A stretch of 53,288 nt of DNA. It comes from an uncultured Verrucomicrobiota bacterium (lineage in GTDB: Bacteria > Auribacterota > JABMQX01 > JAFGEW01). The DNA lies in NCBI GenBank assembly GCA_964449605.1, contig CAYUZG010000002.1:1-53288 (forward strand). Direction: 5' to 3'. Positions 1 through 33,174 of this stretch are shown here, one piece after another (position 1 is the first letter of the stretch; every line of letters starts with the position of its first letter). Position numbers and translations under genes: made by a program. The notes beneath the pieces were generated by a model. It did no database searches. It had not been told where the DNA came from and worked only from the letters and a program-made list of their open reading frames with translations.

Positions 1-148
1 CCATGTCGAGCACGATGTGGGCATACCCCTCGTTCTGGAGCTGCGTGCAGAGCTCCTTGAGCGCGTCCAGCTCCTCCTGTTCACCCCGGGACAGCGCTGG
101 GTCAACCGTAACAACGGCGACGTCTCCGCGCTTCTTAACCCCGTGCAT
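1..148 (-). CDS. STAS-domain anti-sigma-factor antagonist-like protein, N-terminal fragment (gene runs off the left edge)
   Basis: My own minus-strand translation from ATG 148-146 gives MHGVKKRGDVAVVTVDPALSRGEQEELDALKELCTQLQNEGYAHIVLDM. This fits the K-x-GDV-x-VV ... IVLD pattern of SpoIIAA/RsbV-type proteins. AGGAGG lies 6 nt upstream (160-155). An in-frame ATG at 178 is an alternative start. Confidence 0.45.
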   Translation of the reverse strand, partial: MHGVKKRGDVAVVTVDPALSRGEQEELDALKELCTQLQNEGYAHIVLDM

Positions 149-566
149 TCGATTCCTCCTGCTCTGTGCGTCTTCCATGTCCACAAGCACAACCGTCGTC
201 TGCGTCAGGCTCCCGGCCGGCTGCGCGAACTGCGCCCCATGGCCCCCAGCGGCGTTCCGCGGCATGCTGGAGACGGCCGAAGCACGTCGAGCAGGTGCAA
301 GTTTGTTGCCAACTTCGAGCTGATGCCGGCGTCGAGAGCGGGCCTAGACCTTTCGAGGTCAGGCAGCCTGGCCGGGCCTCGATCACCACGCGCCGCGCTG
401 CTTGGTATGGCGCTCGCCGAACCGACCGGCAGTTTCTGCCGACGCGCGTCGCGATCGGGTTGCGGCCGGCACCCGAAACGCCTACCATCGGCACGGACGC
501 GGCCGGCCGACCGACACGTCGGCCAGGGCGCGACCGTGCGAACCCGAGACATGCAAGGGGCAAGCG

Positions 567-1295
567 ATGAAGACGGGAAACGGCGGCAGCGAGCGAGCGG
601 CGGCCATCGTGGCGGCAGCCGGGACCGGAGCCCGTTTCGGTGCGGCTTCGGGCGGCTCGCCGAAGCAGTTCCTCGATCTCGGCGGCGAGCCGATCCTCAT
701 CCGCTCGATCCGGGTCGTGCTCGCCTGCCGAGGGGTCGAGCTTGTCGCCTGCCCCGTGCCCGCCGACTGGCGCGCGCACGCCGAAGAGCTCGTCGCGGCC
801 GCGAGGCTGCCGGCGCGCGTTGTCCTGCTCGATGGAGGGGCCACGCGGCAGGAATCGGTCGCGCGGTCGCTGGAGGCGCTGGCCGGCCCCGACGAGCCGG
901 ACCTCGTCGTGATCCACGATGCCGTGCGCCCGTTGGCCACGGCCGAGCTGGCCCAAGCCGCTCTCGACGCAGCCAGGCAGCACGGCGCCGCCGTCGTGGC
1001 AACACCCAGCGTCGACACCATCGCCGTCCGAAGCGGCGAGCGGATCGAGGCCGTGCTGGAGCGATCGACGCTCCTGAACATCCAGACCCCCCAGGCGTTC
1101 CGCTACCGGCTGATTTGCGAGGCCCACGCCCGCGCAGCCGCCGACGGGGTCGCGGACGCCTCGGACGACGCCACGCTCGTGCTCCGGCTTGGGCATCGCG
1201 TGGCCGTCGTGCCGGGCCCTGCCACGAACATCAAGATTACCTCATCGGTCGATCTCGAGCTCGCCCGACTCCTGTTCGCCGGCGCGACGTCGTAG
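567..1295 (+). CDS. ispD: 2-C-methyl-D-erythritol 4-phosphate cytidylyltransferase
   Basis: Within ORF 402..1295. From ATG 567 the protein reads MKTGNG..AAIVAAAGTGARFG...PKQFLDLGGEPIL...VVIHDAVRP...QTPQAF...TNIKITSSVDLELA, the typical IspD motif order. The upstream Arg-rich part of the ORF is rejected. Confidence 0.85.
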   Translation: MKTGNGGSERAAAIVAAAGTGARFGAASGGSPKQFLDLGGEPILIRSIRVVLACRGVELVACPVPADWRAHAEELVAAARLPARVVLLDGGATRQESVARSLEALAGPDEPDLVVIHDAVRPLATAELAQAALDAARQHGAAVVATPSVDTIAVRSGERIEAVLERSTLLNIQTPQAFRYRLICEAHARAAADGVADASDDATLVLRLGHRVAVVPGPATNIKITSSVDLELARLLFAGATS

Positions 1296-1377
1296 GAGAC
1301 CGCCGATTCCCCACGGGTCGGCACGAAACTTGATCTCTGTCGCACTGTATTCCCTTGCCTACTCGAGGTCAGGCGCC

Positions 1378-2232
1378 GTGGAAAAGCCTCCCGAGAGAAC
1401 AGACAAGCACGTGGCCGTGGTCGACACGCCCGGCGACGAGCGCTCGGCCTGGCACGCCGCCCTGAGCGCCGCGGGCTGGACCGTGACCTGCTGCGACACG
1501 GCCGATGCCGCCACCGACCAGCTCGAACGGGCCGCGCCCGACGTGGTCGTCGCCGAGATCGGCCTTCAGCCCACGGGGGGTCTCGAACTGCTCAAGGTGA
1601 TCAAGGCACGGCGGCTTCGCACGCGAGTCATCTGCACCACGCGCGAGCACGAGTTGGGCAATGTGCTCGAATGCCTGCGCGGGGGTGCAGCCGACTACTT
1701 GAGGCGCCCGTTCGAGCCATCCGAGCTCGTGCGCGCCGTCGACGACGCAGCCGCCGCCACGCCCGACGACGAGTCGATCGAGATCGACATTGGCGAGATG
1801 GGCTGGATCGAGCTGCAGATGCCGTCGTCGGTGCGCTGCATGAGGCGGCTCGATAAGTTTTTCCGGTTGCTGTACGAGTCGGAGGTCGTGCCCGACACGC
1901 TCGAAGAGATCAGCCTGTGCTTCACCGAGATCGTCAAGAACGCGATCGAGTGGGGCCACCGCTTCGACGCGAGCAAGCGTATCCTGCTCAGCCACATGCT
2001 GTTTCAGGACGAGATCGTCTTCAAGGTCCAGGACACCGGCGCCGGATTCGACATCGGCCAGATGCTCGACGAGCACGAGGACCTGATCGCCATGGAGACC
2101 GAGCGCGAAGCGGCCGGCAAACGCCCGGGCGGCCTCGGAATCACACTGGTGGCGGGGTTGATGGACTCGGTGATCTACAACGCGACGGGCAACATGATCA
2201 TCATGTCGAAGAAGATCTATGACGCGGGCTGA
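1378..2232 (+). CDS. Atypical receiver domain fused to a GHKL ATPase / RsbW-SpoIIAB-like serine kinase domain
   Basis: Within ORF 1189..2232; GTG 1378 has GAGG upstream. The N-terminal REC-like fold reads VAVVDTPGDE ... DVVVAEIGLQPTGG ... VICTT ... RRPF. The C-terminus has an N-box EIVKNAIEWG, G1 DTGAGF and G2 GGLGITLV. Confidence 0.7.
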   Translation: MEKPPERTDKHVAVVDTPGDERSAWHAALSAAGWTVTCCDTADAATDQLERAAPDVVVAEIGLQPTGGLELLKVIKARRLRTRVICTTREHELGNVLECLRGGAADYLRRPFEPSELVRAVDDAAAATPDDESIEIDIGEMGWIELQMPSSVRCMRRLDKFFRLLYESEVVPDTLEEISLCFTEIVKNAIEWGHRFDASKRILLSHMLFQDEIVFKVQDTGAGFDIGQMLDEHEDLIAMETEREAAGKRPGGLGITLVAGLMDSVIYNATGNMIIMSKKIYDAG

Positions 2233-3145
2233 GCAGCTTGTCCACGACGAGCCGGGGCTCGGGCGGATCATCGAGTCGATCGAGCAGATCGGGTCGCTGC
2301 CGACCATCCCCGCGGCCGCGCACCGGGCGATGGTGGTTGCCCGCAAGGAGACCTCGTCGATGCGCGAGATCGCCGAGGTGATCTCCCAGGACCAGGCGCT
2401 CGCGGCCACCGTCCTGCGGGTGGTCAACTCCGCCTACTACGGGCTGCGCCAGCGGATCGGCACGCTGCCGCTTGCGCTCACCGTGCTCGGAGTGCGCGAG
2501 ATCATCAACCTCGTGCTCGGCGTCTCGCTTCTGTCGGTGTTTCCGGCCTCGTCGGACAGCGAGCTGTTCAGCCGCGAGGCGCTCTGGCGCGCGAGCGCCC
2601 AGTGCGCCTACACGGCCAAGAGGCTCGCGCACAGCGTCGGGCTCGGCCGCTTGGCCAGCGAGGCGTTTCTCGGCGGGCTCGTGCACGATATCGGCCTCAT
2701 CATCCTGGACGAATACCGGCACGACGAGTTCATCGAGACGCTGCGCAGCGCGCGGCAGACAGGTCTCGAATCGATCGCCGCTGAGATGGACCGGCTCGGC
2801 ACGACGCACGCGAGCATCGGGGCGTGGCTGGCCGAGAGGTGGGCGTTCCCGGAGCCGCTCGTCGAGGCGATCGCCTGCCACCATGATCCCACGAAGAGCT
2901 CGTGGCAGCCGCCGCTGACGCCCCTTGTCCACCTGGCCGAGCTGATCGTCGCGTTGCAGCAGCAGGCCGGCACTGTCGAAGAAGCCGCCGCAGCACTTGA
3001 AGCAGATCCGACGTGGGGGAGACTGCTCTCGCTCGGGCCGCCGGTGCGGCAACCACCGTCGACCATCGGCATGCTCGAGCAAGTGTGCGAGGAAATCGAG
3101 AGCGCGGCGCTCATCCTGGGCGTTGCGAGTTCCTCGCGGCGCTGA
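2219..3145 (+). CDS. HDOD domain signalling protein
   Basis: Motifs LPTIPAAAHRAMVV...VISQDQALAATVLRVVNSAYYGL...TVLGVREI...FLGGLVHDIGLIIL...HASIGAWLAERWAFPEPLVEAIACHH. The start overlaps the upstream stop by 14 nt. Confidence 0.8.
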   Translation: MTRAEQLVHDEPGLGRIIESIEQIGSLPTIPAAAHRAMVVARKETSSMREIAEVISQDQALAATVLRVVNSAYYGLRQRIGTLPLALTVLGVREIINLVLGVSLLSVFPASSDSELFSREALWRASAQCAYTAKRLAHSVGLGRLASEAFLGGLVHDIGLIILDEYRHDEFIETLRSARQTGLESIAAEMDRLGTTHASIGAWLAERWAFPEPLVEAIACHHDPTKSSWQPPLTPLVHLAELIVALQQQAGTVEEAAAALEADPTWGRLLSLGPPVRQPPSTIGMLEQVCEEIESAALILGVASSSRR

Positions 3146-4670
3146 ACGCAGCCACACCCGCATCATCCATACCCAGCCGGTCGAGGATCGCCCGTTTGAG
3201 CCGTTCGGCATTTGCGGGCGGCGCGGCAGCCCAGCGCTTGTCGAGGTGCGTCGGCACAAGCTCATCGACCTGCTCGACGAGCTGGACGTCGCGCACGCCC
3301 CGGATGGCCGCGCCGCGCGAGAAGAAGTTGTAGAACTCGCATTCGGGGCACGCCTGGACGATCCGTTCGAGCTCTCGCAGGTAGCTGTACAGGCTCTGGT
3401 GCGTTGGGATCGGCGCGCCGTAGCGGTCGGTCACGTGCACGATCTTGGCGAGCATCGCCACGAGGCGGTGGCGCACCTCGAGCGAGCTGAACCGATCGGC
3501 CTCGCCGAGCCAGCCACGGTTGCGCGCCAGGTTGGCCGAGTAGACCTTCCAATCGGGGAACGCGCAATCCTGGCCGACGAAAAACAGCTTGCTCACGCCG
3601 TAGCGTACGGCGAGGTCGAGCGCGACGCACGCGGCCGAGCCGCCGCTGGCCGTCACCCCTTTCGCCGCGATCAGATCCTCGACGGCCGAGACGATCGAAT
3701 GGCCCGTTTGCGCGGCGACTACCTTGCGTCCCGGGAAGCGCGCGACCACCTCGCGCGCCGTCGTCGGCAGGAAGATCAGCGTGCCGCCTGGTCGCGCATC
3801 GAGCGGGAAATGCTCCGTGCTCGTCGGCTGCGGATCGACGCTCACCACGAAGTCGGGCTCGATGCCCGCGCGGCACAGTGTGTCGCAGGCAGTGTCAACC
3901 GTGATGATCCACGCTCGGTCCTGGAACTCGGCCAGGTACGGCATCGCCTCATCGAGCGACGGGCCGGCGCTCACAAGGAACACCGGCCGGCCGGCCAGCG
4001 CCGGGAGCACCTCGGCCACGCCGGGACTCGCCACGACGGCGTCGAGGTTCGCCAGCAGATTCGTCATCGAGTTGCCCCGATGGACGACCGCGGCCGAGCG
4101 CTCGAGCTGGATGACCTCGAGCGCGTTGACGATCCGCTCGTAGCCGTCGGGCACCACCGAGAGCAGCGGCGTGTGGATCAGCACGCGTGACCGCTCCGGC
4201 GGCACGTTGGCGAACACGCCCGAAAGGTAGTCGTGCAGAACAACCGCGCCCTCGTGTTCCGACCCGGCCGTCACCAGCCACACGTTCGGCCGGTGGAGCA
4301 CGTCGCCGAGATCGCGCAGGTGGAAGGCCGCCGATAGGACGGCCCGGTTCAGCTCGAGGACGACGAGCTGCCCGGCGTCGCCAACGAGCTCGGCGACCGC
4401 CTCGGCGTGATACCCGAGGCCAAAACCGTAAAGCAGCACGTAGTCGCCGGCGCCGACGCCAGAGCGCTCGGCGAAGCGGCGCGCTTCCTGTCGAGGATCG
4501 TAGCGGCTGTGGAGCAACACGCCCCGGTACGAGATCGTCGGCTCGCCGGTGCGCGCCTCGTCGGTCTCGAGCTCAGGCGGCAGCTCGGCCAGGAGCAGCG
4601 GGACGAGCGCGCGCGCCCTCGGCCCGAGCGCGGCCAGGTTTGCGTCGAGATGCGACGCGGCCGGGTTCAT
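3111..4670 (-). CDS. Motility accessory factor (Maf / DUF115) putative flagellin glycosyltransferase, paralog 1
   Basis: DUF115 core reads RPVFLVSAGPSLDEAMPYL...AWIITVDTACDTLCRAGIEPDFVVSVD...GGSAACVALDLAVRYG...FFVGQDCAF. ATG 4670 overlaps the upstream stop by 4 nt. Confidence 0.8.
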   Translation of the reverse strand: MNPAASHLDANLAALGPRARALVPLLLAELPPELETDEARTGEPTISYRGVLLHSRYDPRQEARRFAERSGVGAGDYVLLYGFGLGYHAEAVAELVGDAGQLVVLELNRAVLSAAFHLRDLGDVLHRPNVWLVTAGSEHEGAVVLHDYLSGVFANVPPERSRVLIHTPLLSVVPDGYERIVNALEVIQLERSAAVVHRGNSMTNLLANLDAVVASPGVAEVLPALAGRPVFLVSAGPSLDEAMPYLAEFQDRAWIITVDTACDTLCRAGIEPDFVVSVDPQPTSTEHFPLDARPGGTLIFLPTTAREVVARFPGRKVVAAQTGHSIVSAVEDLIAAKGVTASGGSAACVALDLAVRYGVSKLFFVGQDCAFPDWKVYSANLARNRGWLGEADRFSSLEVRHRLVAMLAKIVHVTDRYGAPIPTHQSLYSYLRELERIVQACPECEFYNFFSRGAAIRGVRDVQLVEQVDELVPTHLDKRWAAAPPANAERLKRAILDRLGMDDAGVAAFSAARNSQRPG

Positions 4671-7698: not shown

Positions 7699-9621
7699 CT
7701 ACCTATTCTGCCCCGTAACGCCCAATCCCTCGCTCGCGGACGACCCGGCCACAACGGCGCCTTCACGCGCCGCGATGCCCGCGGTGACCTCCCGCAGCAG
7801 GCCGATCCAGAATTCGGCTGCCTCGATGACATCGTCCACCACCGTCACAAACTGTCTCACCGCCTCCGCCTGCCCCTGGACATCGAGCCGCCCAACCATC
7901 GATGGGCTCGCGAGACGCCGATCGCGCATGATCGTCATGGCGCGCGTGAGCGCGTCGGCCAGCAGCTCGAACGCCTCCGTGTGGGACTCGAGCGCGGCGG
8001 CCTCACGTGCGTATCGCGTTTGCAGGCGCCGGATGCGCGCCGCGTCGCAGCGGCCCTTGCCGACCTCGTTGAGGATCGTCCGCAGCGTCGAGCGGCAGGC
8101 CGTCGCGTCTCGCACGACCGCTCTGAGCTCGCGCCGCATCGACTCGACCCGGCCCAGCGCGTGCTTGCCGCTCGTCGGTGTGGCGGCCGATGCGGCCGCA
8201 TCGAGAACGCCGTCGATATCGACGTGCCGCACGCACGTGCGCGCGATGAATTCCTTAAGCGTCATCGGCCGCGTGCCGGCGATTCGCGCGCCGCCCTCGG
8301 TCGCGTCGATGCAGCCGTCAGGCAGGCGGGCCGCCCGATCGTGCAACAGCTCCTCGAAATGCTTGAGGAAGACGACCATCGAGGCATGGCTGTTGACCGG
8401 CCGCCCGAAGATGTCGGGCACGACGATCACGTTGCCGGTGTCGGTGCCGCCCGCCTCGACGCGGCTCATCGCCGCGCCTTTGACGTGCGACATGTCGCCC
8501 GTGTAGGCAAGGTCCTGCCCGACGAGCGCCACGGGCCGGCAGCCCATCTCGAGCGCCAGCAGAAACGCCGTGTGCGCCACCGACAGGCCCTTGTCGAAGC
8601 CGCCGCGCGCGCCCACCGTCTGCGAGAACCAGCGCGAGGCCGACTTGTTCGTGATCTCGGCGTAGAAGCGCGTGCCTTCGAACGCGTCGAGGATGGGCGG
8701 GTAGATCTCCGAGTCGACCACGAGCCGCAGCGCCATCGTGTCGATCCCGCCGAAGTAGCGCATGTTGTTCGACGAGAAGTCGATGCTCACCACCAGGTCG
8801 GGCGCCACGCCGTGGTCGAGCAGCACGTGGATCGCCGTGTCGACGGCGATGATGACCGCCCGGCCCTTGGCGTGGGCGAGCTCGCGCACGTTCTTGCCGA
8901 GCGATGGCCCGGCCGACACAACGATGGCCGGCACACCGTCGAACGCACCGAACAAGCCGTTGACGCCCGGCAGGCCCATGGCGGCCGGCACGTTGCGCGC
9001 CATGTTGCGCGCGTAGTGGCGCCAGCTCTTGTCACGCGAGTTGTTGTTCACCAGCGCGTAGGTGATGGCATCCTGGAGACGCTGGATCAGCTCGTGGTAG
9101 TACACCGGGTCAAGCGCGATCGACGGCGGGTGTTTGATGGCCTTCAGCCCGTTGCGCACAAGCGAGCACTCCTCGGCGCGGACCATCTTGAACACGTCGA
9201 GCGGCGCGAGGCCCGCGGCGAAGAAGATGTTGTGCGCCTCGATCGCCGTCGAGAAATCGACCTGCTCGAGGCAGCAGCGGAAGCGCTCGAGGTCGGGCTC
9301 GACGACGAGCATGAAGTCGCGGTCGTGGTCCCGCTTGAGGTACTCGAGCACGTGGTAGCCCAGCCCCAGGCCGAGCGCGACGACGTTCTCGGTTCTGGCC
9401 TCGTCGTACTTGGCGGCCAGCCGCCGGGCTTCCTCAACCGGGTCCTGGGCGCTGTGGAGCAGCCTGGGGCCCTGGCCAGGCACGACAACGGCCAGCGTCG
9501 GCGGCCCGCTCTTCGATTCGCGCACGACGAGCGACGGCCCGACCGAGCACGCGCTCACGCGCTCGGCCAGCTCGGGCTGGCGTCGCCGAAGCACGTCGAT
9601 GTTTCGCTCGAAGATACCCAC
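7699..9621 (-). CDS. Motility accessory factor (Maf / DUF115) putative flagellin glycosylTransferase, paralog 2
   Basis: GTG start 9621. The N-terminus MGIFERNIDVLRRRQPELAERV is typical of Maf proteins. Core motifs: VPAIVVSAGPSLGKNV...AVIIAVDTAIHVLLDHGVAPDLVVSID...VAHTAFLLALEMGC..VALVGQDLAY. Confidence 0.8.
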   Translation of the reverse strand: MGIFERNIDVLRRRQPELAERVSACSVGPSLVVRESKSGPPTLAVVVPGQGPRLLHSAQDPVEEARRLAAKYDEARTENVVALGLGLGYHVLEYLKRDHDRDFMLVVEPDLERFRCCLEQVDFSTAIEAHNIFFAAGLAPLDVFKMVRAEECSLVRNGLKAIKHPPSIALDPVYYHELIQRLQDAITYALVNNNSRDKSWRHYARNMARNVPAAMGLPGVNGLFGAFDGVPAIVVSAGPSLGKNVRELAHAKGRAVIIAVDTAIHVLLDHGVAPDLVVSIDFSSNNMRYFGGIDTMALRLVVDSEIYPPILDAFEGTRFYAEITNKSASRWFSQTVGARGGFDKGLSVAHTAFLLALEMGCRPVALVGQDLAYTGDMSHVKGAAMSRVEAGGTDTGNVIVVPDIFGRPVNSHASMVVFLKHFEELLHDRAARLPDGCIDATEGGARIAGTRPMTLKEFIARTCVRHVDIDGVLDAAASAATPTSGKHALGRVESMRRELRAVVRDATACRSTLRTILNEVGKGRCDAARIRRLQTRYAREAAALESHTEAFELLADALTRAMTIMRDRRLASPSMVGRLDVQGQAEAVRQFVTVVDDVIEAAEFWIGLLREVTAGIAAREGAVVAGSSASEGLGVTGQNR

Positions 9622-9652: not shown

Positions 9653-10264
9653 TCAGGGCACCATGCCGATGAGTTGCTCGAGGAGTGCTCGCTCCTCGCG
9701 CAGCTTGGCGATCAACTCGTATTCGAGCAGATCGCTCAGTGCGACGAGATCGCCCTGCTCCATGGCTCGCTTGGTCTCCTGGAGGGCGGTGAGCAGATCC
9801 TCGTTGATGTTCCTGATCGTGCGGCCCTCGACCTCGACCTCTCCGGGGTCGTAGCCAAGGCACGCCTGCGTTGCCTGGAGCAGATGAATCACCTGGCGCC
9901 AATGCGTCAGGCACTCGCCGAACAGCGAGAACGCCTCCTGGCGCGCGCCGCACTGGAGCGCCGTGGCGACCTTGCCCAGCTTCTCCTCGAGGGCAGGCAG
10001 GCCGTCGCGCGTCTGCTCGAGCGCGGCGGTCAGCACCGCCGACGCGTCCTGCACCTGGAAGTCGATCACGTCGTCCGGCATCAGCTCGCGCTCGCGCTGC
10101 GACGCTTCTTGCTCCGGGCCGATCCGTTGGCCGTTCAGCACAAGGCCGACTGCGATCTCGTTTCGTTCTGACGCGGCACCCTGGACCGCGTCGATCAGCT
10201 CGCCGAGCGTGCGAACGCCGGACGAGGAGAGATCGACCTCAACACCGCCGATAGTTACCTGCAT
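9653..10264 (-). CDS. Hypothetical protein with a beta-grasp-like N-terminus and helical C-terminus
   Basis: ATG 10264 has AAGGA upstream. MQVTIGGVEVDL..VRTLGELIDAV....IAVGLVLNGQRI......LMPDDVIDFQV resembles the ThiS/MoaD sequence pattern. The rest is helical (LLEYELIAKLREERALLEQL). No family recognised. Confidence 0.5.
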   Translation of the reverse strand: MQVTIGGVEVDLSSSGVRTLGELIDAVQGAASERNEIAVGLVLNGQRIGPEQEASQRERELMPDDVIDFQVQDASAVLTAALEQTRDGLPALEEKLGKVATALQCGARQEAFSLFGECLTHWRQVIHLLQATQACLGYDPGEVEVEGRTIRNINEDLLTALQETKRAMEQGDLVALSDLLEYELIAKLREERALLEQLIGMVP

Positions 10265-14765: not shown

Positions 14766-14792
14766 CTATCGGCGGGTGTCGCGTCGGCTTTA
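14766..14792 (-). promoter_or_regulatory. Sigma28 (FliA) promoter for flagellin 1
   Basis: Minus strand reads TAAA-gccgacgcgacaccc-GCCGATAG, i.e. consensus TAAA-N15-GCCGATAA with one mismatch. It lies 32 nt after the csrA stop and implies a leader of about 250 nt. Confidence 0.6.
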
Positions 14793-25951: not shown

Positions 25952-25990
25952 AAGAGAAAACGGCGGCACGGGATCGGGTCCCGTGCCGCC
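25952..25990 (-). terminator. Rho-independent terminator after flgM
   Basis: Minus strand reads ggcggcacggga-cccga-tcccgtgccgcc (perfect 12-bp stem) followed by GTTTTCTCTTCC. Confidence 0.7.
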
Positions 25991-26026
25991 ATCAGTTATC
26001 GTCTTCCTTGGAAGAAGGGCAGGCTG

Positions 26027-26335
26027 CTATTCATCGAGCATCCTGCGGGCGATCTCGTCGGCCACCTCGGAACCGTCATATTCGCCGGCGGCGAGCTTGC
26101 GCTTTGCCTCGGCCACCTTGTCGGGCCGGGCATCTGGCAACTCATTGACGATCCGGACGTAGCGAGCGATCTTGGCCTTCTCCTGAGCTTCGTCGGAGAT
26201 GGCGAGCGAGTCGCTGCCGGCCGCTGTGTCGGCTTTGGCGGCGTTCGGCGACGCCTTGCTCTCGGGCTTCTGCCCCTTCACCGACTTGAGGTGCTCGGTG
26301 AGCTGGACAGAGTCGCTGACCTTCTCGACATCCAT
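26027..26335 (-). CDS. flgM: Anti-sigma-28 factor FlgM
   Basis: C-terminal ...ISDEAQEKAKIARYVRIVNELPDARPDKVAEAKRKLAAGEYDGSEVADEIARRML is the classic FlgM sigma28-binding region. Confidence 0.8.
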   Translation of the reverse strand: MDVEKVSDSVQLTEHLKSVKGQKPESKASPNAAKADTAAGSDSLAISDEAQEKAKIARYVRIVNELPDARPDKVAEAKRKLAAGEYDGSEVADEIARRMLDE

Positions 26336-26362
26336 GCTATCCCCCTAATGCAAGAACAGTGC

Positions 26363-27298
26363 CTACTTGCCACCCTGTACATCGGCACTTTCTGCCGGTT
26401 GCTTTACTTGATTCTCCGACCGAACTTCTCCCGGACGGCCCTCTCCGGCTCGGAGCACGCCAAGCACGTAGGCCGACACCTGGTTGAACTCGGCCACGAT
26501 CGCCTCCATGAGCGCCTCGATCTCGCCCGGCTCGATTCGGAGCATCTCGTAGGTCGGCTGCGGGATCGCAGCGACGCGGTCGTCGCCGCTCGAGCCGAGG
26601 CTCATCGCCTTGGCGAGCGTGTCGGCCGCGCCCACAATGCGGGTTTCCAGCGCATGGCGCTCGGTGAGGTCCGGCTCGTGATGGTACGCCATGGCGTCCA
26701 CCACGAGGTCGGGCAACTCCCAGCGCAGGGCGATTTGCTCGCCGAGCCGGCAGTGGGTGAAGCCGATCGTGGCCCGTTCGGCCTCATAGAGCGAGGTGCG
26801 AAACCGCCACGCCCGGTCGAGCGCCCGGCCAAGCTGGTCGGCCATGTACTGCGCCATGAGCAGGCGGCCGATGTCGTGCAGCAAGCCGGCGACGAAGACG
26901 GCCTCCTCGTGGCGGTGGCGCACGCGGCGCGCCAGGATGCGCGCCCCGGCGGCGACGGCGACCGAATGCTGCCAGAACGCGGTGAAGTCGAGCGGGCCGG
27001 CGCCTTCGGTGGGCTCCTTGAGCGCGCGGCGAGCGTGGCCCAGGATCTGGTGGGAGATCGTGTCGAACCCGAGCAGCAGCACGGCCTGCGAGACGGTGCC
27101 GATCTGGTGCCGCAGCCCATACATGGCCGAGTTGACGAGCCGGAGCACCTGGGCCGTGAGAGACGGATCCTCGGAGATCGCCTCGCTCAGCTCCTGCGCC
27201 GAGACGTCCGCGTTCTGCATCATGCGCACAAGGCGCGCGTGCACGGGCGACATCACCGGCGCCTGGTCGATTCGCTCCAGAACCTGCTCGATCTGCAT
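26363..27298 (-). CDS. HDOD domain signalling protein (second paralog)
   Basis: SPVHARLVRMMQNADVSAQELSEAISEDPSLTAQVLRLVNSAMYGL...LLLGFDTI...FVAGLLHDIGRLLM...HCRLGEQIALRWELPDLVVDAMAYHH. Confidence 0.8.
   Translation of the reverse strand: MQIEQVLERIDQAPVMSPVHARLVRMMQNADVSAQELSEAISEDPSLTAQVLRLVNSAMYGLRHQIGTVSQAVLLLGFDTISHQILGHARRALKEPTEGAGPLDFTAFWQHSVAVAAGARILARRVRHRHEEAVFVAGLLHDIGRLLMAQYMADQLGRALDRAWRFRTSLYEAERATIGFTHCRLGEQIALRWELPDLVVDAMAYHHEPDLTERHALETRIVGAADTLAKAMSLGSSGDDRVAAIPQPTYEMLRIEPGEIEALMEAIVAEFNQVSAYVLGVLRAGEGRPGEVRSENQVKQPAESADVQGGK
26379..26406 (-). promoter_or_regulatory. Candidate sigma28 promoter for flgM inside the HDOD 3' end
   Basis: Minus strand reads TAAA-N16-GCCGATGT (spacer one longer than consensus). 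It lies 44-71 nt upstream of the flgM ATG. Confidence 0.3.
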
Positions 27299-28117
27299 CT
27301 ACTTACCCGACAAGAGCCATTCGTGGTTCGGGTCGGTCCTCGGATAGAGCTTGCGGCCGCGGCCTGCCAGGAACCATAGGTAGTACAACCGGTATCCGGG
27401 ACCCGCGACGACGGGGTGGTATCCCTCGGGGATAGCGACCGCGTCGCCGTCCTGTATCGTGTAGGCCACGTCGAACGTTGCGCCGTCATAAAGCCGCTGC
27501 ATGCCGAAGCCCTGGCTCGGGTCCACCTTGAAGTAGTAGATCTCCTCCATGTCCGCCTCGTGCGGCGGCTCGTGCGCGTCGTGCTTGTGCGGCGGCGCGC
27601 TCGACCAGTTGCCGGGCGGGTTCATCGTCTCGCCGAGCACCAAGTATCGCGCATCCACGTTCTCGTAGAAGATGTCGTCGACCGTCCGGCTCCAGTTGTC
27701 CCGGCCGACGGCCTTCTGGCGCACGCCCGACGGCTCGACCAGGGCCGGCGCGCCCGGTGTGTCTGCCTCGTCAACCCGGCACCAGCACAGGGCCGCCTGG
27801 ACGTCGCTCAGCGCCGCTACCTTGAAGCCGCACCGGGGCGGCAGGTAGACGGCGTGCGCCTTGCCGGAGAACACGTTCTGCCTCGCGCCGACCTCGGCAA
27901 AGGCGGTCTTACCGGCCTCGACGCGGCAACGGCCTCCGAGCACAACAAGGCCTGCCTCTCTGTCACCTGTTTCGGCAGCATAATCTGTGCCTTCCGCCAG
28001 GCTGAGCAGCCCCAGACTGAGGCGTTTCAGGCCGGCGAATCCCGGCGGGACGACCTCTATGTACCCCTGCTTCAACGGCTTACGAACGTGAAAGCGCGGG
28101 CTCATCTCTTGCTGCAT
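27299..28117 (-). CDS. iolB: 5-deoxy-glucuronate isomerase-like cupin (IolB/KduI family)
   Basis: GNWSSAPPHKHDAHEPPHEADMEEIYYFKVDPSQGFGMQRLY...IPEGYHPVVAGPGYRLYYLWFLAG...DPNHEWLL closely follows the B. subtilis IolB pattern. ATG 28117 with a GGAGG RBS is preferred over the TTG at 28135. Confidence 0.8.
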   Translation of the reverse strand: MQQEMSPRFHVRKPLKQGYIEVVPPGFAGLKRLSLGLLSLAEGTDYAAETGDREAGLVVLGGRCRVEAGKTAFAEVGARQNVFSGKAHAVYLPPRCGFKVAALSDVQAALCWCRVDEADTPGAPALVEPSGVRQKAVGRDNWSRTVDDIFYENVDARYLVLGETMNPPGNWSSAPPHKHDAHEPPHEADMEEIYYFKVDPSQGFGMQRLYDGATFDVAYTIQDGDAVAIPEGYHPVVAGPGYRLYYLWFLAGRGRKLYPRTDPNHEWLLSGK

Positions 28118-28183
28118 CGACACGCCTCCAATCAACTGAATGTGCGTGGCCGCACCCAGGGTTCCCGCTGGCCGGCGCTCGCG

Positions 28184-29806
28184 CTAGCTGGCGCCCGCCA
28201 GCCCCTCGGCCAGGGCGTCGAGGTGCCTGCGGAAGTGCTTCTCGAGCGCGGCGTAGTAGTCCTCTTCGTGCGCTGCCAGGACCGCGCAGAGCCGGGCGCG
28301 GAAGTCGTGCTCCGGGCCCGACGTGAGCACCGACCCAAACGCGACGTGCAGCACCTGGCGCCACCCATCGTCGTCAAGGAGCGACTCGTACTGGTCGGGC
28401 GCGATCGCTGCCGGCTTGGGCATCCGGGTCGGGTCGGCCGAGACATGGTAGGTGCGCTTGTCCTCGGCATAGCGGCCGTGGGAGAACTCCAGGATCTCGC
28501 CGAATAGGCCGGCATCGCGCCGCGCAAGGACCCGCAACGCCTCAAGATACGTCGTGCCCGCCGTCTTGACGTGGAGCTTGTCGCCGGCGTGCTTCGTCAT
28601 GATCGGGTAGACGCTGAACTTGTCGCTGCCCGAGTGGATGCTCAGCCGATAGGCGTTGAACGTGTCTCGGATTGCCGCGTGGATCGCGAAGTCGCGCTCG
28701 AACGCGGCGAGGTCGCCCCTGTAGTCGATGCCCTTCTCGAACGCGCCCGGGAAGCGGAGCGCCAGGCTGTCGACGCGCATCTCGAGGCGGCGGAACTCGG
28801 AGGCAATGAACAGGTGCTCGAGCGGCGAGGTCGGCCAGTCGGTCTCGTCGAAGGAAACCTCCAGGTCGAAGCGGTCGCTGCGCTTCTCATCGAGCAGCGC
28901 CGCGAGCCCGGCGCACCGCGCGATGCCGGCCGAGTACTTGACGGCGCAGCGAACGATGCTCTCCTCGTCGAACGCCAGCTTCGCCGTATGCTGGCCGTGG
29001 CGATCGGTGACCGTCTCGCTCGAGCCTGTGTACTCGGCGAGCAGCTCTTCGGGCGAGGACCGGAGCGCCTCCCACGGCAGCGCCCGGAACGCCGCGCGCA
29101 GCGCCTCGTCGCTCAGCGTCTCCGGGTCTGTGATCACGTCGGACGGATCGAGCGTGAACATCGTGTACGGGAACGGCGAGACGCGCTCGATATCGTCGCG
29201 GGTCTTCAGATGGTCGGCGTCGGCGCCCCACAGGCCGGAGTAGCCCTCCTCGAGGATGCCCCAGACGGCGGTCGCCATCACGTCTTCCGGCGTGCGCGCC
29301 GTCCTGTCCATCTCGCGGATCGACTGCTGCGCGAACAGCGGGAAGTAGGCCGAGCCGGCAAGCGCGCGCACGTGGCCGGGCGTCGAGAGGCCGATGCGGT
29401 CGCCCGCGCCGAAACCGGCCTGGCCCGGGTTGGCCGACGGCCGGAGATGCGCAACCTCGCGCTGGAGGTAAGTAGCGTTCGCGTTCGAGCACGGACATAT
29501 ATGAAGCGTCAGGCTGCCGTCGCCGGCGCCGACGGTCTGGGTCACCTCGGGAGGGAGCCCGGAAACCGACCCGACCTGCGCGGCGACGACGAGCACCTTC
29601 TCCGACCCGTCGCGTACCAGAAAAAGCAGGCGCCCCGACTGGAGCAACGGCGAGCGGCTGTACAGGAGGAGGCCGGCGGCCGCGCACCGCTCGGCGATCG
29701 CCGATACCTTTGCCTGAGCTGCCTCGTCCCCTTCCCGTCCGAGGAAGTCGAGAAGCTCCTCGGAGCATCGAGCGAGCGCGTCCGTTCCTTCTCTGTTCTC
29801 AGACAC
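28184..29806 (-). CDS. Tagaturonate/fructuronate epimerase (UxaE) family protein
   Basis: Within ORF 28184..30289. GTG 29806 has a GGAAGGA RBS just after the SDR stop. Motifs recalled for the UxaE family: GFGAGDRIGLSTPGHVRAL...FAQQSIREM.RT.RT...GADADHLKT...SIHSGSDKFS.YP...HVKTAGTTYLEA. Confidence 0.6.
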   Translation of the reverse strand: MSENREGTDALARCSEELLDFLGREGDEAAQAKVSAIAERCAAAGLLLYSRSPLLQSGRLLFLVRDGSEKVLVVAAQVGSVSGLPPEVTQTVGAGDGSLTLHICPCSNANATYLQREVAHLRPSANPGQAGFGAGDRIGLSTPGHVRALAGSAYFPLFAQQSIREMDRTARTPEDVMATAVWGILEEGYSGLWGADADHLKTRDDIERVSPFPYTMFTLDPSDVITDPETLSDEALRAAFRALPWEALRSSPEELLAEYTGSSETVTDRHGQHTAKLAFDEESIVRCAVKYSAGIARCAGLAALLDEKRSDRFDLEVSFDETDWPTSPLEHLFIASEFRRLEMRVDSLALRFPGAFEKGIDYRGDLAAFERDFAIHAAIRDTFNAYRLSIHSGSDKFSVYPIMTKHAGDKLHVKTAGTTYLEALRVLARRDAGLFGEILEFSHGRYAEDKRTYHVSADPTRMPKPAAIAPDQYESLLDDDGWRQVLHVAFGSVLTSGPEHDFRARLCAVLAAHEEDYYAALEKHFRRHLDALAEGLAGAS

Positions 29807-29853
29807 GAGAGGAGTCCTTCCCTTAGCTTCCGACAATACGCCCGGCCGAGAGT

Positions 29854-30705
29854 CTATACACCGGCGAACGCACTGAACCCGCCGTCGACCGGGATGACCG
29901 CTCCGGTGACGAACGCCGCCGAGTCGGACGCGAGCCAGATGGCCACACCGACCAGGTCTTCGGGCTTGCCGAACACGCCCTGGGGCGTCGCGCCGATGAT
30001 CGTCTTGCCCCGGTCCGTGAGAACCTCCTTGCCGCCCTTCTCGGCGAACAGGAGGAAGTGGTTCTGCGCAGTGTCGAAGAACCCCGGCGCGATCGCGTTG
30101 ATGCGGATCTTCGGCGAGGCGTTCTGGGCCATGTCGACGGCCAACCACTGCGTGAAGTTGATGACGGCGGCCTTCGCAGCCGAATAGGCCGGGATCCGGG
30201 TGAGCGGCGTCATGCCTGCCATCGAGGCGATGTTGACGATGCAGCCCGCGCCCTGCTCGGCCATCGCCTTGCCAAACACCTGGCTGCACAGGACGGTTCC
30301 CATCAGGTTCAGATCGAAGACGCGCCGGAAGGCGTCCTCGGGCAGATCGGCGAACGTGACGCCCTCGGCCGGGTTCGTCGTCGCCTTCGGGTGGTTGCCG
30401 CCGGCGCCGTTGACGAGGATGTCGACGCGGCCCGCGCGCTCGACGATCTCCCCGAGAGCCGCCTCGATGCTGGCCCGGTCGAGGACGTCGCAGCGCAGCG
30501 GCGTGATGTTCTCGCTGCCGGCCTCAGCGCGGAGCCGTTCGGCCTGCTGGCGCGTTCGCTCTTCATCGATATCAAGCAGGAACACGCTGGCGCCGGCCCG
30601 GGCGTACCCGGCAGCGATCGCGCCGCACAGCACGCCTCCGCCACCCGTCAGGGCGGCCGCTTTGCCCGCCAGCGAAAACGTATCGGTACCGCGTTTCGGC
30701 ATCAT
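29854..30705 (-). CDS. Short-chain dehydrogenase/reductase (mannonate/fructuronate-reductase-like SDR)
   Basis: TGGGGVLCGAIA (TGxxxGxG), NGAGG, S-x12-YSAAKAA catalytic triad, PGFF..., C-terminal FVTGAVIPVDGGFSA. Confidence 0.85.
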   Translation of the reverse strand: MMPKRGTDTFSLAGKAAALTGGGGVLCGAIAAGYARAGASVFLLDIDEERTRQQAERLRAEAGSENITPLRCDVLDRASIEAALGEIVERAGRVDILVNGAGGNHPKATTNPAEGVTFADLPEDAFRRVFDLNLMGTVLCSQVFGKAMAEQGAGCIVNIASMAGMTPLTRIPAYSAAKAAVINFTQWLAVDMAQNASPKIRINAIAPGFFDTAQNHFLLFAEKGGKEVLTDRGKTIIGATPQGVFGKPEDLVGVAIWLASDSAAFVTGAVIPVDGGFSAFAGV

Positions 30706-30764
30706 CGCGCCTCGTCTCTCTCTGTCCGTGTGTTGCCGCGTCAGGGGTCCCCGTGGCTGCTCCC

Positions 30765-30792
30765 TTTATACCACAAAGCACGGCATTGTCGC
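30765..30792 (-). promoter_or_regulatory. Candidate sigma70-type promoter upstream of the SDR gene
   Basis: Minus strand reads GCGACA-N16-(TGg)TATAAA. This is the only AT-rich patch in the 147-nt gap between the NeuB-like stop and the SDR start. Confidence 0.3.
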
Positions 30793-30852
30793 ATGGGGTG
30801 ACGCGAGCACCGGAGAAAGGGGTAGGACCTGCCCAGCGCAGGGCTGGGGCCG

Positions 30853-31917
30853 TCAGACGTCGTCCCAGCGAATGGGGGCCATACGCGGGATGGCGCGTTT
30901 GGCGGTGCGGCCGAGGACTTCCCCGAGGGACTTCGGCGCGATCCCCTTGGCGGGCTTGAGGATGCGGATCGCCTCCTCGGTCAGCGCCTCGCCCGCCGCG
31001 ATGTCGCGCGCGGCAAAGAGGCCGCGCCGGCTGTCGACGAGGATCGAGCGTTCCGAGGCGGTCGGCGCTTTCTCCGCCGTGCCGCGGGCCTGCTCGACCC
31101 GGCGCACGGCGCTGACGAGGCGGGCAAGCTCGGCGGGATCGAGCGAGAGCTGCTGGTCCGGGCCGGGCATCTCTTTGTCGAGGGTGAAATGCTTCTCGAC
31201 GATGCAGGCGCCCATCGCGACGGCGGCGATCGCGACCTCGACGCCGAGCGTGTGGTCCGAGAAGCCGACGGGCACATCGAAGGCGTCGCGGAGCGTCGCC
31301 ATCGCGTTCAGGTTCACCTCGTCGTCCGCAGGCGGGTAGACGCTCGTGCACTGGAGCAGGATGATGTCGTCGTTGCCCGCGTCGCGGCAGCACGCGACCG
31401 CCTCGCCGACCTCGTCGATGGTCGACAGGCCCGTCGAGATGATGACCGGCAAGCCGGTCGCAGCCGCGCAGCGGATCAGCGGCAGGTGCGTCACGTCGCT
31501 GGAGGAGATCTTGAACGCCGGGGTGCCGAGCGACTGCAGGGGACCGACCATCCCGAGGTCGAATACCGAGGTGAAGAGCGTCATGCCCACGTCGCGGGCC
31601 GCGGCGAAGAGCCGCCCGTGCGCCTCGGGCGACAGCTCGAGGCTCTTGTACATCTCGTACGACGACTTCGTGCCGCCGGTGACGCCCTCGACCGCTTTCG
31701 TCTCGACGAGCTCGGTATCGCACATCTCGGCGGCCTGGAACGACTGGAACTTGATCGCGTCGGCGCCGGCCAGACGGGCCACCTCGATCATGCGAACGGC
31801 CGTGGCCAGGTCACCGTTGTGATTCACGCCGGCTTCGGCGACGAGGTAGGTCGGCTCGTCTGGCCCGATCGTGCGTCCGGCGATCGTCACGGCATGCACG
31901 GCGCAGTCTCCTGCCAC
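30853..31917 (-). CDS. Nonulosonic acid synthase (NeuB/PseI/LegI family)
   Basis: IGPDEPTYLVAEAGVNHNGDLATAVRMIEVARLAGADAIKFQ...PAFKISSSDVTHLPLI...PVIISTG...LLQCTSVYP...VGFSDHTLG...VEKHFTLD, plus a C-terminal SAF-like segment. The start is uncertain: GTG at 31917, 31899 or 31890. Confidence 0.85.
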   Translation of the reverse strand: MAGDCAVHAVTIAGRTIGPDEPTYLVAEAGVNHNGDLATAVRMIEVARLAGADAIKFQSFQAAEMCDTELVETKAVEGVTGGTKSSYEMYKSLELSPEAHGRLFAAARDVGMTLFTSVFDLGMVGPLQSLGTPAFKISSSDVTHLPLIRCAAATGLPVIISTGLSTIDEVGEAVACCRDAGNDDIILLQCTSVYPPADDEVNLNAMATLRDAFDVPVGFSDHTLGVEVAIAAVAMGACIVEKHFTLDKEMPGPDQQLSLDPAELARLVSAVRRVEQARGTAEKAPTASERSILVDSRRGLFAARDIAAGEALTEEAIRILKPAKGIAPKSLGEVLGRTAKRAIPRMAPIRWDDV

Positions 31918-31974: not shown

Positions 31975-33174
31975 TCAGGACGTGCTGGGCTCCGCGGGTT
32001 CTTCGGGCGTGCCGGGCTTGTCCGCGTCGGCCGACTGCCCCTCCGGCTCGTCAGGCTGTGCGTCGGCCTCATCGTCGGAGGCGGCGGTCTCGGCGGGCGC
32101 GAATAGCTCGTCAAGGGCCGATGTATCAACAGGCTTCTTCGCCGGTTTCTTCTGAGCCTTGGCGAGCACGTCGTCGAGCGACGGCGCCTGTTCCTTCCGC
32201 TTGGCTTCCTCTTCCTCCTTGGTGAGCGCATTCGCCATGAGCGCGTCGAGCTTGTCGTTCTCAGGTGGCGTGTGCACCACGGGTTTAGGCACGACTCGTG
32301 GCGGGGGCGGGGGCGCGACCGGTTCCACAGCCGCCGTCTCTTCCTCGACGGGTGGCTCGGCAACCGGCGGCTCCGTTTCCTCGGCGGCCGGGGCCTCTTC
32401 GAGCTCGTCCGTCTCGGCAAGTCCGCTCGTCTCGGCCAGTTCGCTGCTGGTCGCCGGCTTCTGGAACACGTCCTTATTGAGGCCGACCCACTCGGGGTTC
32501 TTCTTGAGCAGCTCGACGGTCCTGCCCAGCGAGACGATGCGGTCCGGACGGTGGAGACGCCGGTAGATCCGGCGCACGAGCTTCATGTCGTCCTTGGTGT
32601 CGACGGTGAGCCGGACCCCCTCGGGCATCCGGAAGCGTTCCTCGGCCTTGACGGTGACGATCTTGAACTCGTCCGGGTGCTCCATGATGTAGGGGTTGAC
32701 GTGCTCGCGCTGATGCGGCTGCGTGGCGAGTGCGTCCTGCTTGCGGAGCGCCTCGAGTGTGACCGCTTCGACGCCGGTGCCCAGGATGCAGCCCTCGACG
32801 TAGCAGTAGTCGGCCTTCTCCTCGCGCAGCTTTTCGACGCAGGCGTCAATGAAGCTCGGCTCGAACAGCGGGTTGTCCCCCGTGATGCGGACCACGTGCG
32901 TGGCGTCGACGAGGTTGGCGGCCGCGACGTACCGTTTCAGCACGTCGTGCTCGGAGCCGGCGAACCCGACGACCTGCCACTCGCGTGCCCGTTTGAGCAG
33001 GATGCGGTCGTCGGCGCTCGTGGTCGTTGCGATGACAATGGCATCGACCCGGTGCGCGTACCGCGTGCGCTCGACGATGTGGTACAGCATCGCGATGCCG
33101 GCAATGTCGTCGAGCACCTTGCTGGGATAGCGGGTGCTCCCCATGCGTGCTTGGATGATGGCGGCGGTTTTCAC
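31975..33174 (-). CDS. Cytidylyltransferase (SpsF/NeuA-type CMP-sugar synthetase) with a ~170-aa low-complexity C-terminal tail
   Basis: GTG start. KTAAIIQARMGSTRYPSKVL...VVRITGDNPLFEP...REHVNPYI...RLTVDTKDDMKLV. The same frame then continues through acidic, Pro- and Lys-rich sequence to the stop at 31975. Confidence 0.7.
   Translation of the reverse strand: MKTAAIIQARMGSTRYPSKVLDDIAGIAMLYHIVERTRYAHRVDAIVIATTTSADDRILLKRAREWQVVGFAGSEHDVLKRYVAAANLVDATHVVRITGDNPLFEPSFIDACVEKLREEKADYCYVEGCILGTGVEAVTLEALRKQDALATQPHQREHVNPYIMEHPDEFKIVTVKAEERFRMPEGVRLTVDTKDDMKLVRRIYRRLHRPDRIVSLGRTVELLKKNPEWVGLNKDVFQKPATSSELAETSGLAETDELEEAPAAEETEPPVAEPPVEEETAAVEPVAPPPPPRVVPKPVVHTPPENDKLDALMANALTKEEEEAKRKEQAPSLDDVLAKAQKKPAKKPVDTSALDELFAPAETAASDDEADAQPDEPEGQSADADKPGTPEEPAEPSTS

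Follow-up and report, generated by a model that had tools for sequence, protein, structure and literature searches.

Why should three enzymes that look like parts of a hexuronate or inositol catabolic pathway lie in the middle of a flagellar gene region, between a NeuB-family synthase gene and the gene for the anti-sigma-28 factor FlgM? The question is raised by a stretch of 53,288 nucleotides from an uncultured bacterium (GenBank assembly GCA_964449605.1, contig CAYUZG010000002.1, positions 1 to 53,288; the whole stretch is called the window here), which encodes a short-chain dehydrogenase/reductase (SDR), a UxaE-like epimerase and an IolB-like cupin isomerase in a row, followed by an HDOD-domain protein and FlgM. 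The original prediction was that the three enzymes have been recruited to the flagellar regulon, where they would either make a precursor for the adjacent synthase or link a sugar-acid signal to HDOD/FlgM control of late flagellar genes. Our analysis suggests that they are likely to belong to flagellin-glycan synthesis and not to a catabolic pathway. The locus would be a flagellin nonulosonate island whose precursor module is non-canonical and built on sugar-acid enzymes. The coupling of the IolB-like isomerase to the synthase across distant lineages hints at a route to a flagellar sugar that has not been described.

Sugar-acid enzymes within a flagellin glycosylation operon

The window has a G+C content of approximately 67% and comes from a 2.8-Mb metagenome-assembled genome (MAG; G000) that is 87% complete. 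Its profile-scanned parts are flagellar, with genes for FlhB, FlhA, FlhF and FliA, a glycosylation block, flgM, the flagellins, rod and ring genes, FlgK and FliD. The five genes in question were found where they had been placed, all on the minus strand and here in the order of transcription:

29854-30705, minus: SDR of the D-mannonate oxidoreductase (UxuB-type) subfamily (NF006132, 333.9 bits, cut-off 281)
28184-29806, minus: UxaE-family (class II aldolase-like) keto-uronate epimerase (PF16257, 458 bits, model positions 3-475 of 475)
27299-28117, minus: IolB/KduI-family bicupin isomerase (PF04962, 254 bits; TIGR04378 (iolB), 237.5 bits)
26363-27298, minus: HDOD/HD-domain protein (PF08668, 192.8 bits), specific to family f1, to which the window belongs
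26027-26335, minus: FlgM, anti-sigma-28 factor (PF04316, 36.9 bits)

The gaps between them are 47, 66, 0 and 27 nt, as described before, and the cupin stop codon directly abuts the HDOD ATG (the junction reads TAGATG). A good Shine-Dalgarno sequence precedes both the UxaE gene and the cupin gene. The cupin has the bicupin fold, scores above the TIGR04378 iolB equivalog cut-off of 205 bits and matches the IolB-like structure 2QJV in the PDB (E=4e-32); the UxaE-like protein matches PF16257 over its full length and the PDB entry 9LHU (E=6.5e-104), and the SDR is above its subfamily cut-off.

Immediately upstream of the three enzymes, on the same strand and mostly overlapping, are genes for the synthase, a cytidylyltransferase, 2 radical SAM/SPASM proteins and 3 glycosyltransferases (GTs), so that the trio lies within a long glycosylation operon and not at its head. 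The two genes nearest to the trio are:

30853-31917, minus: NeuB-family ulosonate synthase (phosphoenolpyruvate (PEP) plus aldose) with a SAF domain (PF03102, 282.8 bits)
31975-33174, minus: cytidylyltransferase (CTP_transf_3) with a long C-terminal extension (PF02348, 107 bits), presumed to activate the ulosonic acid with cytidine monophosphate (CMP)

The synthase stays under both equivalog cut-offs of its family (NeuB, 356.7 versus 399.65 bits; PseI, 311.1 versus 340.25 bits), and its top PDB matches are SpsE (1VLI) and PseI (8H2C). The block brings a NeuB-family synthase together with a cytidylyltransferase, with transferases and with neighbouring flagellin genes, and has the make-up of a flagellin nonulosonate glycosylation island. 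The canonical CMP-nonulosonate pathways lead to N-acetylneuraminic acid (Neu5Ac; NeuC-NeuB-NeuA), pseudaminic acid (Pse; PseBCHGIF), legionaminic acid (Leg) and, via mannose 6-phosphate, ketodeoxynonulosonic acid (Kdn). Like these, the island has its synthase and cytidylyltransferase beside the flagellins; unlike them, it has a sugar-acid isomerase beside the synthase in place of NeuC- or PseB-type suppliers, and no ATP-grasp ligase, aminotransferase or HAD phosphatase was found in it.

A common catabolic module of the hexuronate or inositol type, in which a uronate is turned into a keto-uronate, its epimer and finally an aldonate and the cupin stands in for UxaC, might have come to lie in the flagellar region by chance, and all three proteins do score above the family or subfamily cut-offs of catabolic enzymes. 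However, the scanned parts of the window contain no kinase, aldolase or transporter genes, in line with what had been noted from the sequence, and a dehydratase or a regulator is likewise lacking near the trio there. In the myo-inositol pathway IolB isomerises 5-deoxy-D-glucuronate to 2-deoxy-5-keto-D-gluconate, in the company of IolC and of IolD and IolE, which produce its substrate; the neighbours of the cupin are NeuB and HDOD/FlgM, and the UxaE-like protein lacks its hexuronate catabolic context (UxaC before it in the pathway, and UxuB, UxuA, KdgK and KdgA after it) as well.

The missing partners were sought genome-wide, in five family genomes (86-98% complete) unless the bacterium's own genome is named. 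IolD reached at best 336 bits (cut-off 715) and IolE 78 bits (cut-off 290), IolC not being included in the search; UxuA, which would use up mannonate, was not found above its cut-off, in a search that did not cover the enolase-type mannonate dehydratases, and UxaC was not found in the own genome. On the nonulosonate side, no canonical precursor gene (NeuC, PseB/LegB-type dehydratase) exceeded its cut-off, with best scores of 91 bits for NeuC (cut-off 235.9) and 69.6 bits for PseB (cut-off 407.75). The only Epimerase_2 protein of the own genome is a non-hydrolysing WecB, and its best DegT aminotransferase, on contig C119, stands beside a sugar-1-phosphate nucleotidyltransferase and a generic dehydratase, not in a Pse set. 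The pattern repeats in all five family genomes, leaving the synthase without a canonical substrate supplier and the "catabolic" enzymes without a source or a sink.

Conserved and variable parts of the locus in relatives

The arrangement recurs in relatives at 66-93% UxaE identity and is therefore not a matter of chance. The whole order, GT-rSAM-GT-GT2-rSAM-cytidylyltransferase-NeuB-SDR-(ADH)-UxaE-cupin-HDOD-FlgM-flagellins (rSAM, radical SAM; ADH, alcohol dehydrogenase), is retained at 66-71% UxaE identity; the additional zinc-dependent alcohol dehydrogenase (Zn-ADH) between SDR and UxaE occurs in one full-order relative (L001) and in contig L005. The cytidylyltransferase is kept upstream of NeuB in L001, L003, L022 and L024. 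NCBI titles the relatives Verrucomicrobiota, and the GTDB phylum holds just 79 species genomes, so that the lineage is probably a small, separate phylum-level group.

Which part of this arrangement is constant becomes clear from the more distant loci. UxaE is restricted to family f1 among the 40 relatives searched, and the SDR is present in G000, G001, G002, G003 and L005 and absent from G004, L022, L024, L025 and L142. In G004, which represents a fourth genus, and in the metagenomic contig L022, NeuB is directly followed by the cupin, HDOD, FlgM and the flagellins, without SDR or UxaE. A second lineage (L024, L025, L142), with a G+C content of 53-56% versus 65-68% and cupins that are 54-56% identical, has the order FlhF-FlhG-FliA ... 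GT-rSAM-GT-cytidylyltransferase-GT-NeuB-cupin-FlgM, and here the reading frame of NeuB runs into that of the cupin, with a 4-nt overlap in L142. NeuB and the cupin are thus adjacent or overlapping in 5 contigs from 2 lineages (G004, L022, L024, L025 and L142). Because both groups have NeuB-cupin without SDR or UxaE, the conserved unit is NeuB plus the cupin beside flgM, and SDR-(Zn-ADH)-UxaE is a cassette inserted between them in some genera. The cupin is predicted to be transcribed with neuB in the sister genera. The expected synteny with flgM and neuB does hold in all family members examined, but it is not the trio that forms the unit, as NeuB has its constant partner in the cupin only. One contig shows a different boundary: in L005 (251-2776) the SDR-ADH-UxaE-cupin block is preceded, on the opposite strand, by HNH endonuclease and DNA methyltransferase genes instead of NeuB, so that a mobile element may have inserted where the cassette begins or ends.

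In a maximum-likelihood tree of 87 cupin sequences, all flagellar (NeuB-linked) cupins form a single clade (ultrafast bootstrap 99, SH-like approximate likelihood ratio test 95). We screened approximately 157 outgroup cupin loci, 77 from genomes and 80 from metagenomes, with the window proteins, and in none of them does NeuB or FlgM lie beside the cupin, with the sole exception of L048. The metagenome scan with the cupin alignment gave 80 loci with outgroups at no more than approximately 51% identity, except for one 54% fragment without informative neighbours, and no further NeuB-linked case. L048 (545-12729) is from an unrelated bacterium with 48% G+C and a 1.77-Mb chromosome, and holds NeuB and a cupin in a tight same-strand cluster, in the order NAD-epimerase/dehydratase, cytidylyltransferase, NeuB, WbqC, PIG-L deacetylase, ATP-grasp, SDR, ATP-grasp, cupin and GH57-like protein. 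Judged from this gene content, the cupin family and nonulosonate genes appear to have come together independently in L048.

That related genomes might place the trio in ordinary catabolic loci is not borne out, since family members keep the neuB/flgM synteny and only homologues under approximately 52% identity are found in ordinary sugar or sugar-acid catabolic loci. UxaE homologues at approximately 48% identity lie in LacI/UxaE/Zn-ADH/GFO_IDH/ABC-transporter loci, one of which adds creatininase-family and AP_endonuc_2 genes and resembles what we take to be the Thermotoga-type inositol route ending in tagaturonate. IolO is a 5-keto-L-gluconate 4-epimerase (PMC12632266). Acquisition of UxaE together with Zn-ADH from an inositol locus of the Thermotoga type was considered and rejected, the island Zn-ADH (L001, L005) being only approximately 25% identical to the Zn-ADH beside outgroup UxaE. 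Cupin homologues at 49-50% identity lie in modules of two AP_endonuc_2 genes, the cupin and a 2-hydroxyacid dehydrogenase, and others in TRAP-transporter/cupin/SDR/kinase/LarA-like or cupin/kinase/UxaE modules. The cupin co-occurs with an SDR in L041, L069, L167, L179 and L206, and with UxaE in L054, L077 and L208. All three enzymes appear to derive from sugar-acid catabolism, where they would cooperate, because their outgroup homologues sit together in such loci.

This co-occurrence favours a stray catabolic module, as does the lack of clade-specific changes in the cupin active site (see below). On the other hand, the cupin remains next to NeuB even in loci that have neither SDR nor UxaE, and does so in two lineages; the cassette, moreover, interrupts an operon at a point where the two flanking genes are elsewhere coupled in translation. 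Together with the absence of a local transporter, kinase, dehydratase or regulator, and with the failure to find UxuA, IolD and IolE in the five genomes or UxaC in the own genome, this makes chance placement of a catabolic module quite improbable.

Two outgroup arrangements are of interest in their own right. A four-gene module of 2 AP_endonuc_2 genes, an IolB-like cupin and a D-2-hydroxyacid dehydrogenase is conserved in L123 (8312-11851, labelled Latescibacteria) and L124 (8344-11995, an unclassified MAG); since it has no IolC or IolD, the name "5-deoxy-glucuronate isomerase" is probably wrong for this cupin too. In L041 (683-10140) and L069 (9854-14115), from Clostridia and Chloroflexota, the cupin is repeatedly accompanied by an SDR that is 53-58% identical to the window SDR, by a sugar kinase and by a LarA-like (Lar_N) protein, and in L041 by a TRAP transporter as well; these genes would form an uncharacterised sugar-acid catabolic module.

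HDOD and the promoters around flgM

The five genes had been proposed to form one co-transcribed unit, read from a single sigma70-like promoter at 30765-30792 and closed by a strong terminator after flgM. Four features bear on this proposal:

30706-30852, minus: NeuB-SDR spacer of 147 nt, with an AT-rich patch and a CTTTGTG-NN-ATAAAG motif (~30779-30765)
26380-26406, minus: predicted sigma28 (FliA)-type promoter for flgM, TAAAG-N15/16-GCCGAT(G/A), with a conserved core, in the 3' coding end of HDOD
26350-26365, minus: invariant 16-mer T-AGGCAC-TGTTC-TTGC overlapping the HDOD stop codon, a sigma54 -24/-12 consensus with one mismatch
25959-25993, minus: intrinsic terminator after flgM, with a 15-pair stem (10 G-C pairs) followed by a T-run

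The terminator stands, as the strongest terminator-like hairpin in 23-39 kb; a single promoter is not supported, and the sigma70-like site stays a candidate. The AT-rich patch exists (TGCGAC-N17-TATAAA with a TG extension), but it fails the sigma70 consensus scan (0 sites across 23-39 kb), and relatives retain it only in part. The CTTTGTG-NN-ATAAAG motif is an imperfect inverted repeat common to G000 and L001/G003 (L001 ~7960-7975) but not to L003/G002, and it may serve the inserted cassette as an internal promoter or operator. An Rfam scan of 23-39 kb gave no RNA family, hence no riboswitch in the spacer.

For flgM, the picture is different from that of a gene at the end of a single transcript. 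The sigma28-type site of the window reads TAAAG-N16-GCCGATG, and its core is invariant in six relatives although neighbouring codons vary. A relaxed pattern finds only 2 sites in the 53-kb window, this one and the flagellin promoter at 14767-14792, and the second lineage (L024, L142) has equivalent sites upstream of flgM, in the cupin-flgM spacer. The site is predicted to be a classical FliA-dependent flgM promoter, and flgM would not merely be read through. Between it and the flgM start codon lies the sigma54-like 16-mer (AGGCAC-N5-TTGC); we did not adopt this as a working flgM promoter, as its predicted start leaves a 3-nt leader and skips the invariant GGGGGA Shine-Dalgarno sequence.

The position of HDOD raises the possibility that the enzymes make a ligand from a sugar acid, which HDOD senses in order to modulate FlgM/FliA control of late flagellar genes. 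The abutting cupin stop and HDOD start, with a tight spacing that is kept throughout family f1, and the location of HDOD immediately upstream of flgM would fit such a coupling. However, HDOD is present in all family f1 loci and missing from the second lineage (L024, L142), where the cupin is directly followed by flgM and the NeuB-cupin link persists; HDOD is family-specific, and the conserved coupling is that between NeuB and the cupin. Moreover, flgM has its own predicted promoter, and a mechanistic link between HDOD and FlgM was not found in the literature searched, which contained passing mentions only. The signalling branch of the original prediction gains nothing from these observations, and we regard it as highly improbable.

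Elsewhere in the window, the left end of the flagellar region (135-3265 and 9653-10264, minus) contains long open reading frames of 353, 352, 354 and 203 aa that have no Pfam match at E<=1e-4.

A possible substrate supply for the NeuB-family synthase

In the cupin, H177, H179, E187/E191/E192, H234, R79, R144 and R208 do not vary within the flagellar clade and reach at least 80% conservation among 77 outgroups, and 46 positions, including the His/Glu metal ligands and three Arg, are common to both groups. Neofunctionalisation of the cupin was rejected, as none of its positions combines fixation in the flagellar clade with a difference from a conserved outgroup residue. E165 and D198 of the UxaE-like protein correspond in the alignment to Glu126 and Asp159 of the enzyme from C. 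laeviribosi, a retro-aldol catalytic Glu/Asp pair. The cupin, the UxaE-like protein and the SDR look active, because the cupin ligands and Arg residues are kept, the UxaE Glu/Asp pair is present and the SDR is above the UxuB-type cut-off. Their chemistry has probably been carried over unchanged, as isomerisation, epimerisation and oxidoreduction of keto or aldehydo sugar acids.

The catabolic systems from which this chemistry is known are instructive in both their likeness and their difference. The cupin shares the bicupin family and the His/Glu/Arg core of IolB and KduI, and isomerase and SDR are paired as in KduI/KduD; unlike in those systems, the island cupin is coupled to a NeuB-type synthase, and even its nearest outgroups are in non-canonical loci. 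In work from 2012 that is cited in PMC3750489, Rodionova and co-workers reportedly described a Thermotoga-type hexuronate pathway made up of UxaC, UxaE (tagaturonate/fructuronate epimerase), UxuB and UxuA. With the UxaE catalytic pair intact and a UxuB-type SDR, the island pair would similarly interconvert mannonate, fructuronate and tagaturonate. In contrast to the Thermotoga-type pathway, the island has no transporter or regulator nearby, its isomerase is a cupin and not UxaC, and its genes are part of a flagellin-glycosylation operon; the searches found no UxaC in the own genome and no UxuA in the five family genomes.

Within a flagellin-glycan role, the question is whether the cupin product enters the synthase or is attached elsewhere. 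The cupin, with SDR and UxaE, could build a substituent derived from a sugar acid, or else a second sugar, for attachment to the nonulosonate or glycan by GTs or, in other organisms, by ATP-grasp ligases, with NeuB not being fed. L048 argues for such tailoring, as it unites NeuB, the CMP-transferase, WbqC, PIG-L, two ATP-grasp ligases, SDR and cupin in one same-strand cluster, and so do the three GTs of the island, which suggest more than one sugar, and the precedent for acyl-type tailoring in Shewanella sfmABCDE (PMC3765264). However, the island lacks an ATP-grasp ligase or aminotransferase, so there is no amine to acylate; no other source of NeuB substrate was found in the five genomes; and the cupin is coupled, through overlapping reading frames, specifically to NeuB and not to a GT. 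We therefore consider tailoring possible but doubtful. Substrate or precursor supply to NeuB is the role we tentatively favour, because the coupling is specific to NeuB, no other supplier was found and the island is without amine-forming or ligase genes. As regards the recruitment of the enzymes as precursor makers for NeuB, the embedding in a flagellar glycosylation operon and the lack of NeuC and PseB in five genomes agree with the original prediction; what has to be revised is that the trio is not the unit and that flgM has its own predicted promoter.

Supply of the synthase could proceed as follows. The cupin would isomerise a keto sugar acid to its aldehyde (uronate-type) form, which the synthase would condense irreversibly with PEP. 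In the genus of the window, the SDR would first oxidise a D-mannonate-type aldonate to a 5-keto acid (fructuronate type), and the UxaE-like enzyme would epimerise the carbon adjoining the keto group (tagaturonate type), changing the stereoisomer that reaches cupin and synthase. The product would be a ulosonic acid that is atypical and carries no amino group, and the adjacent cytidylyltransferase would activate it with CMP; the radical SAM enzymes may edit it, and the GT proteins would transfer it to the flagellins encoded just downstream. HDOD would ride on the same transcript in this family, with flgM additionally driven by its own FliA-type promoter. In its most specific and unlikely form, this model has the synthase use an aldehydo-hexuronate (or deoxy-uronate) from the coupled IolB-type isomerase, not an N-acetyl-hexosamine or mannose, to give a nine-carbon dicarboxylic ulosonic ("nonulosaric") acid, with the SDR/UxaE cassette setting the stereochemistry from an aldonate precursor. 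If true, "nonulosaric" acid would be a class of flagellin sugar not yet described.

Several points weigh against substrate supply. The direction of flux and the order of steps are taken from family chemistry alone, and the cupin subfamily has no known substrate. Cupin-only lineages need another source of keto acid, and none was identified. In L048 the cupin and SDR pair travels with ATP-grasp ligases, which fits a side-chain role better than substrate supply. Finally, all genomes are MAGs (the own genome as incomplete as stated above), in which "not found" is not the same as "absent".

The nearest experimentally studied system is sfmABCDE of Shewanella oneidensis, in which a NeuB-domain gene is followed by a TPP enzyme, a FabG-like SDR, a methyltransferase and an ATP-grasp ligase. 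All of these genes are needed to modify the flagellins, and motility depends on the operon as well (Bubendorfer et al. 2013, PMC3765264). It is an experimental precedent, in favour of a glycan role for the island enzymes, for catabolic-looking enzymes beside a NeuB-domain gene that act in flagellin modification. The likeness is in a NeuB-domain gene followed by central or catabolic-looking enzymes in a flagellar region; sfm adjoins Maf genes and is FliA-controlled (PMC3765264). The difference is in the enzymes themselves, with a TPP enzyme, a methyltransferase and an ATP-grasp ligase in sfmABCDE, and PseB/PseC elsewhere in the genome, versus a KduI/IolB cupin, UxaE, radical SAM proteins and GTs in the island, without PseB/C or a ligase.

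No paper linking the KduI/IolB or UxaE families to nonulosonate synthesis or flagellin glycosylation was found in the literature searched, where 5-deoxy-glucuronate isomerase and flagella are brought together in passing mentions. To our knowledge, flagellin glycosylation with sialic-acid-like sugars is well studied solely where it follows the Pse, Leg or Neu pathway, all of which begin with UDP- or GDP-N-acetylglucosamine. If the isomerase feeds the synthase, the island would represent a compact new route to a nine-carbon acid sugar, possibly of a new sugar class. It would also provide a first physiological role outside catabolism for the large, poorly characterised "IolB-like" subfamily, whose members annotation pipelines name 5-deoxy-glucuronate isomerase. 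The automatic names (IolB, tagaturonate epimerase) would mislead the metabolic reconstruction of these MAGs.

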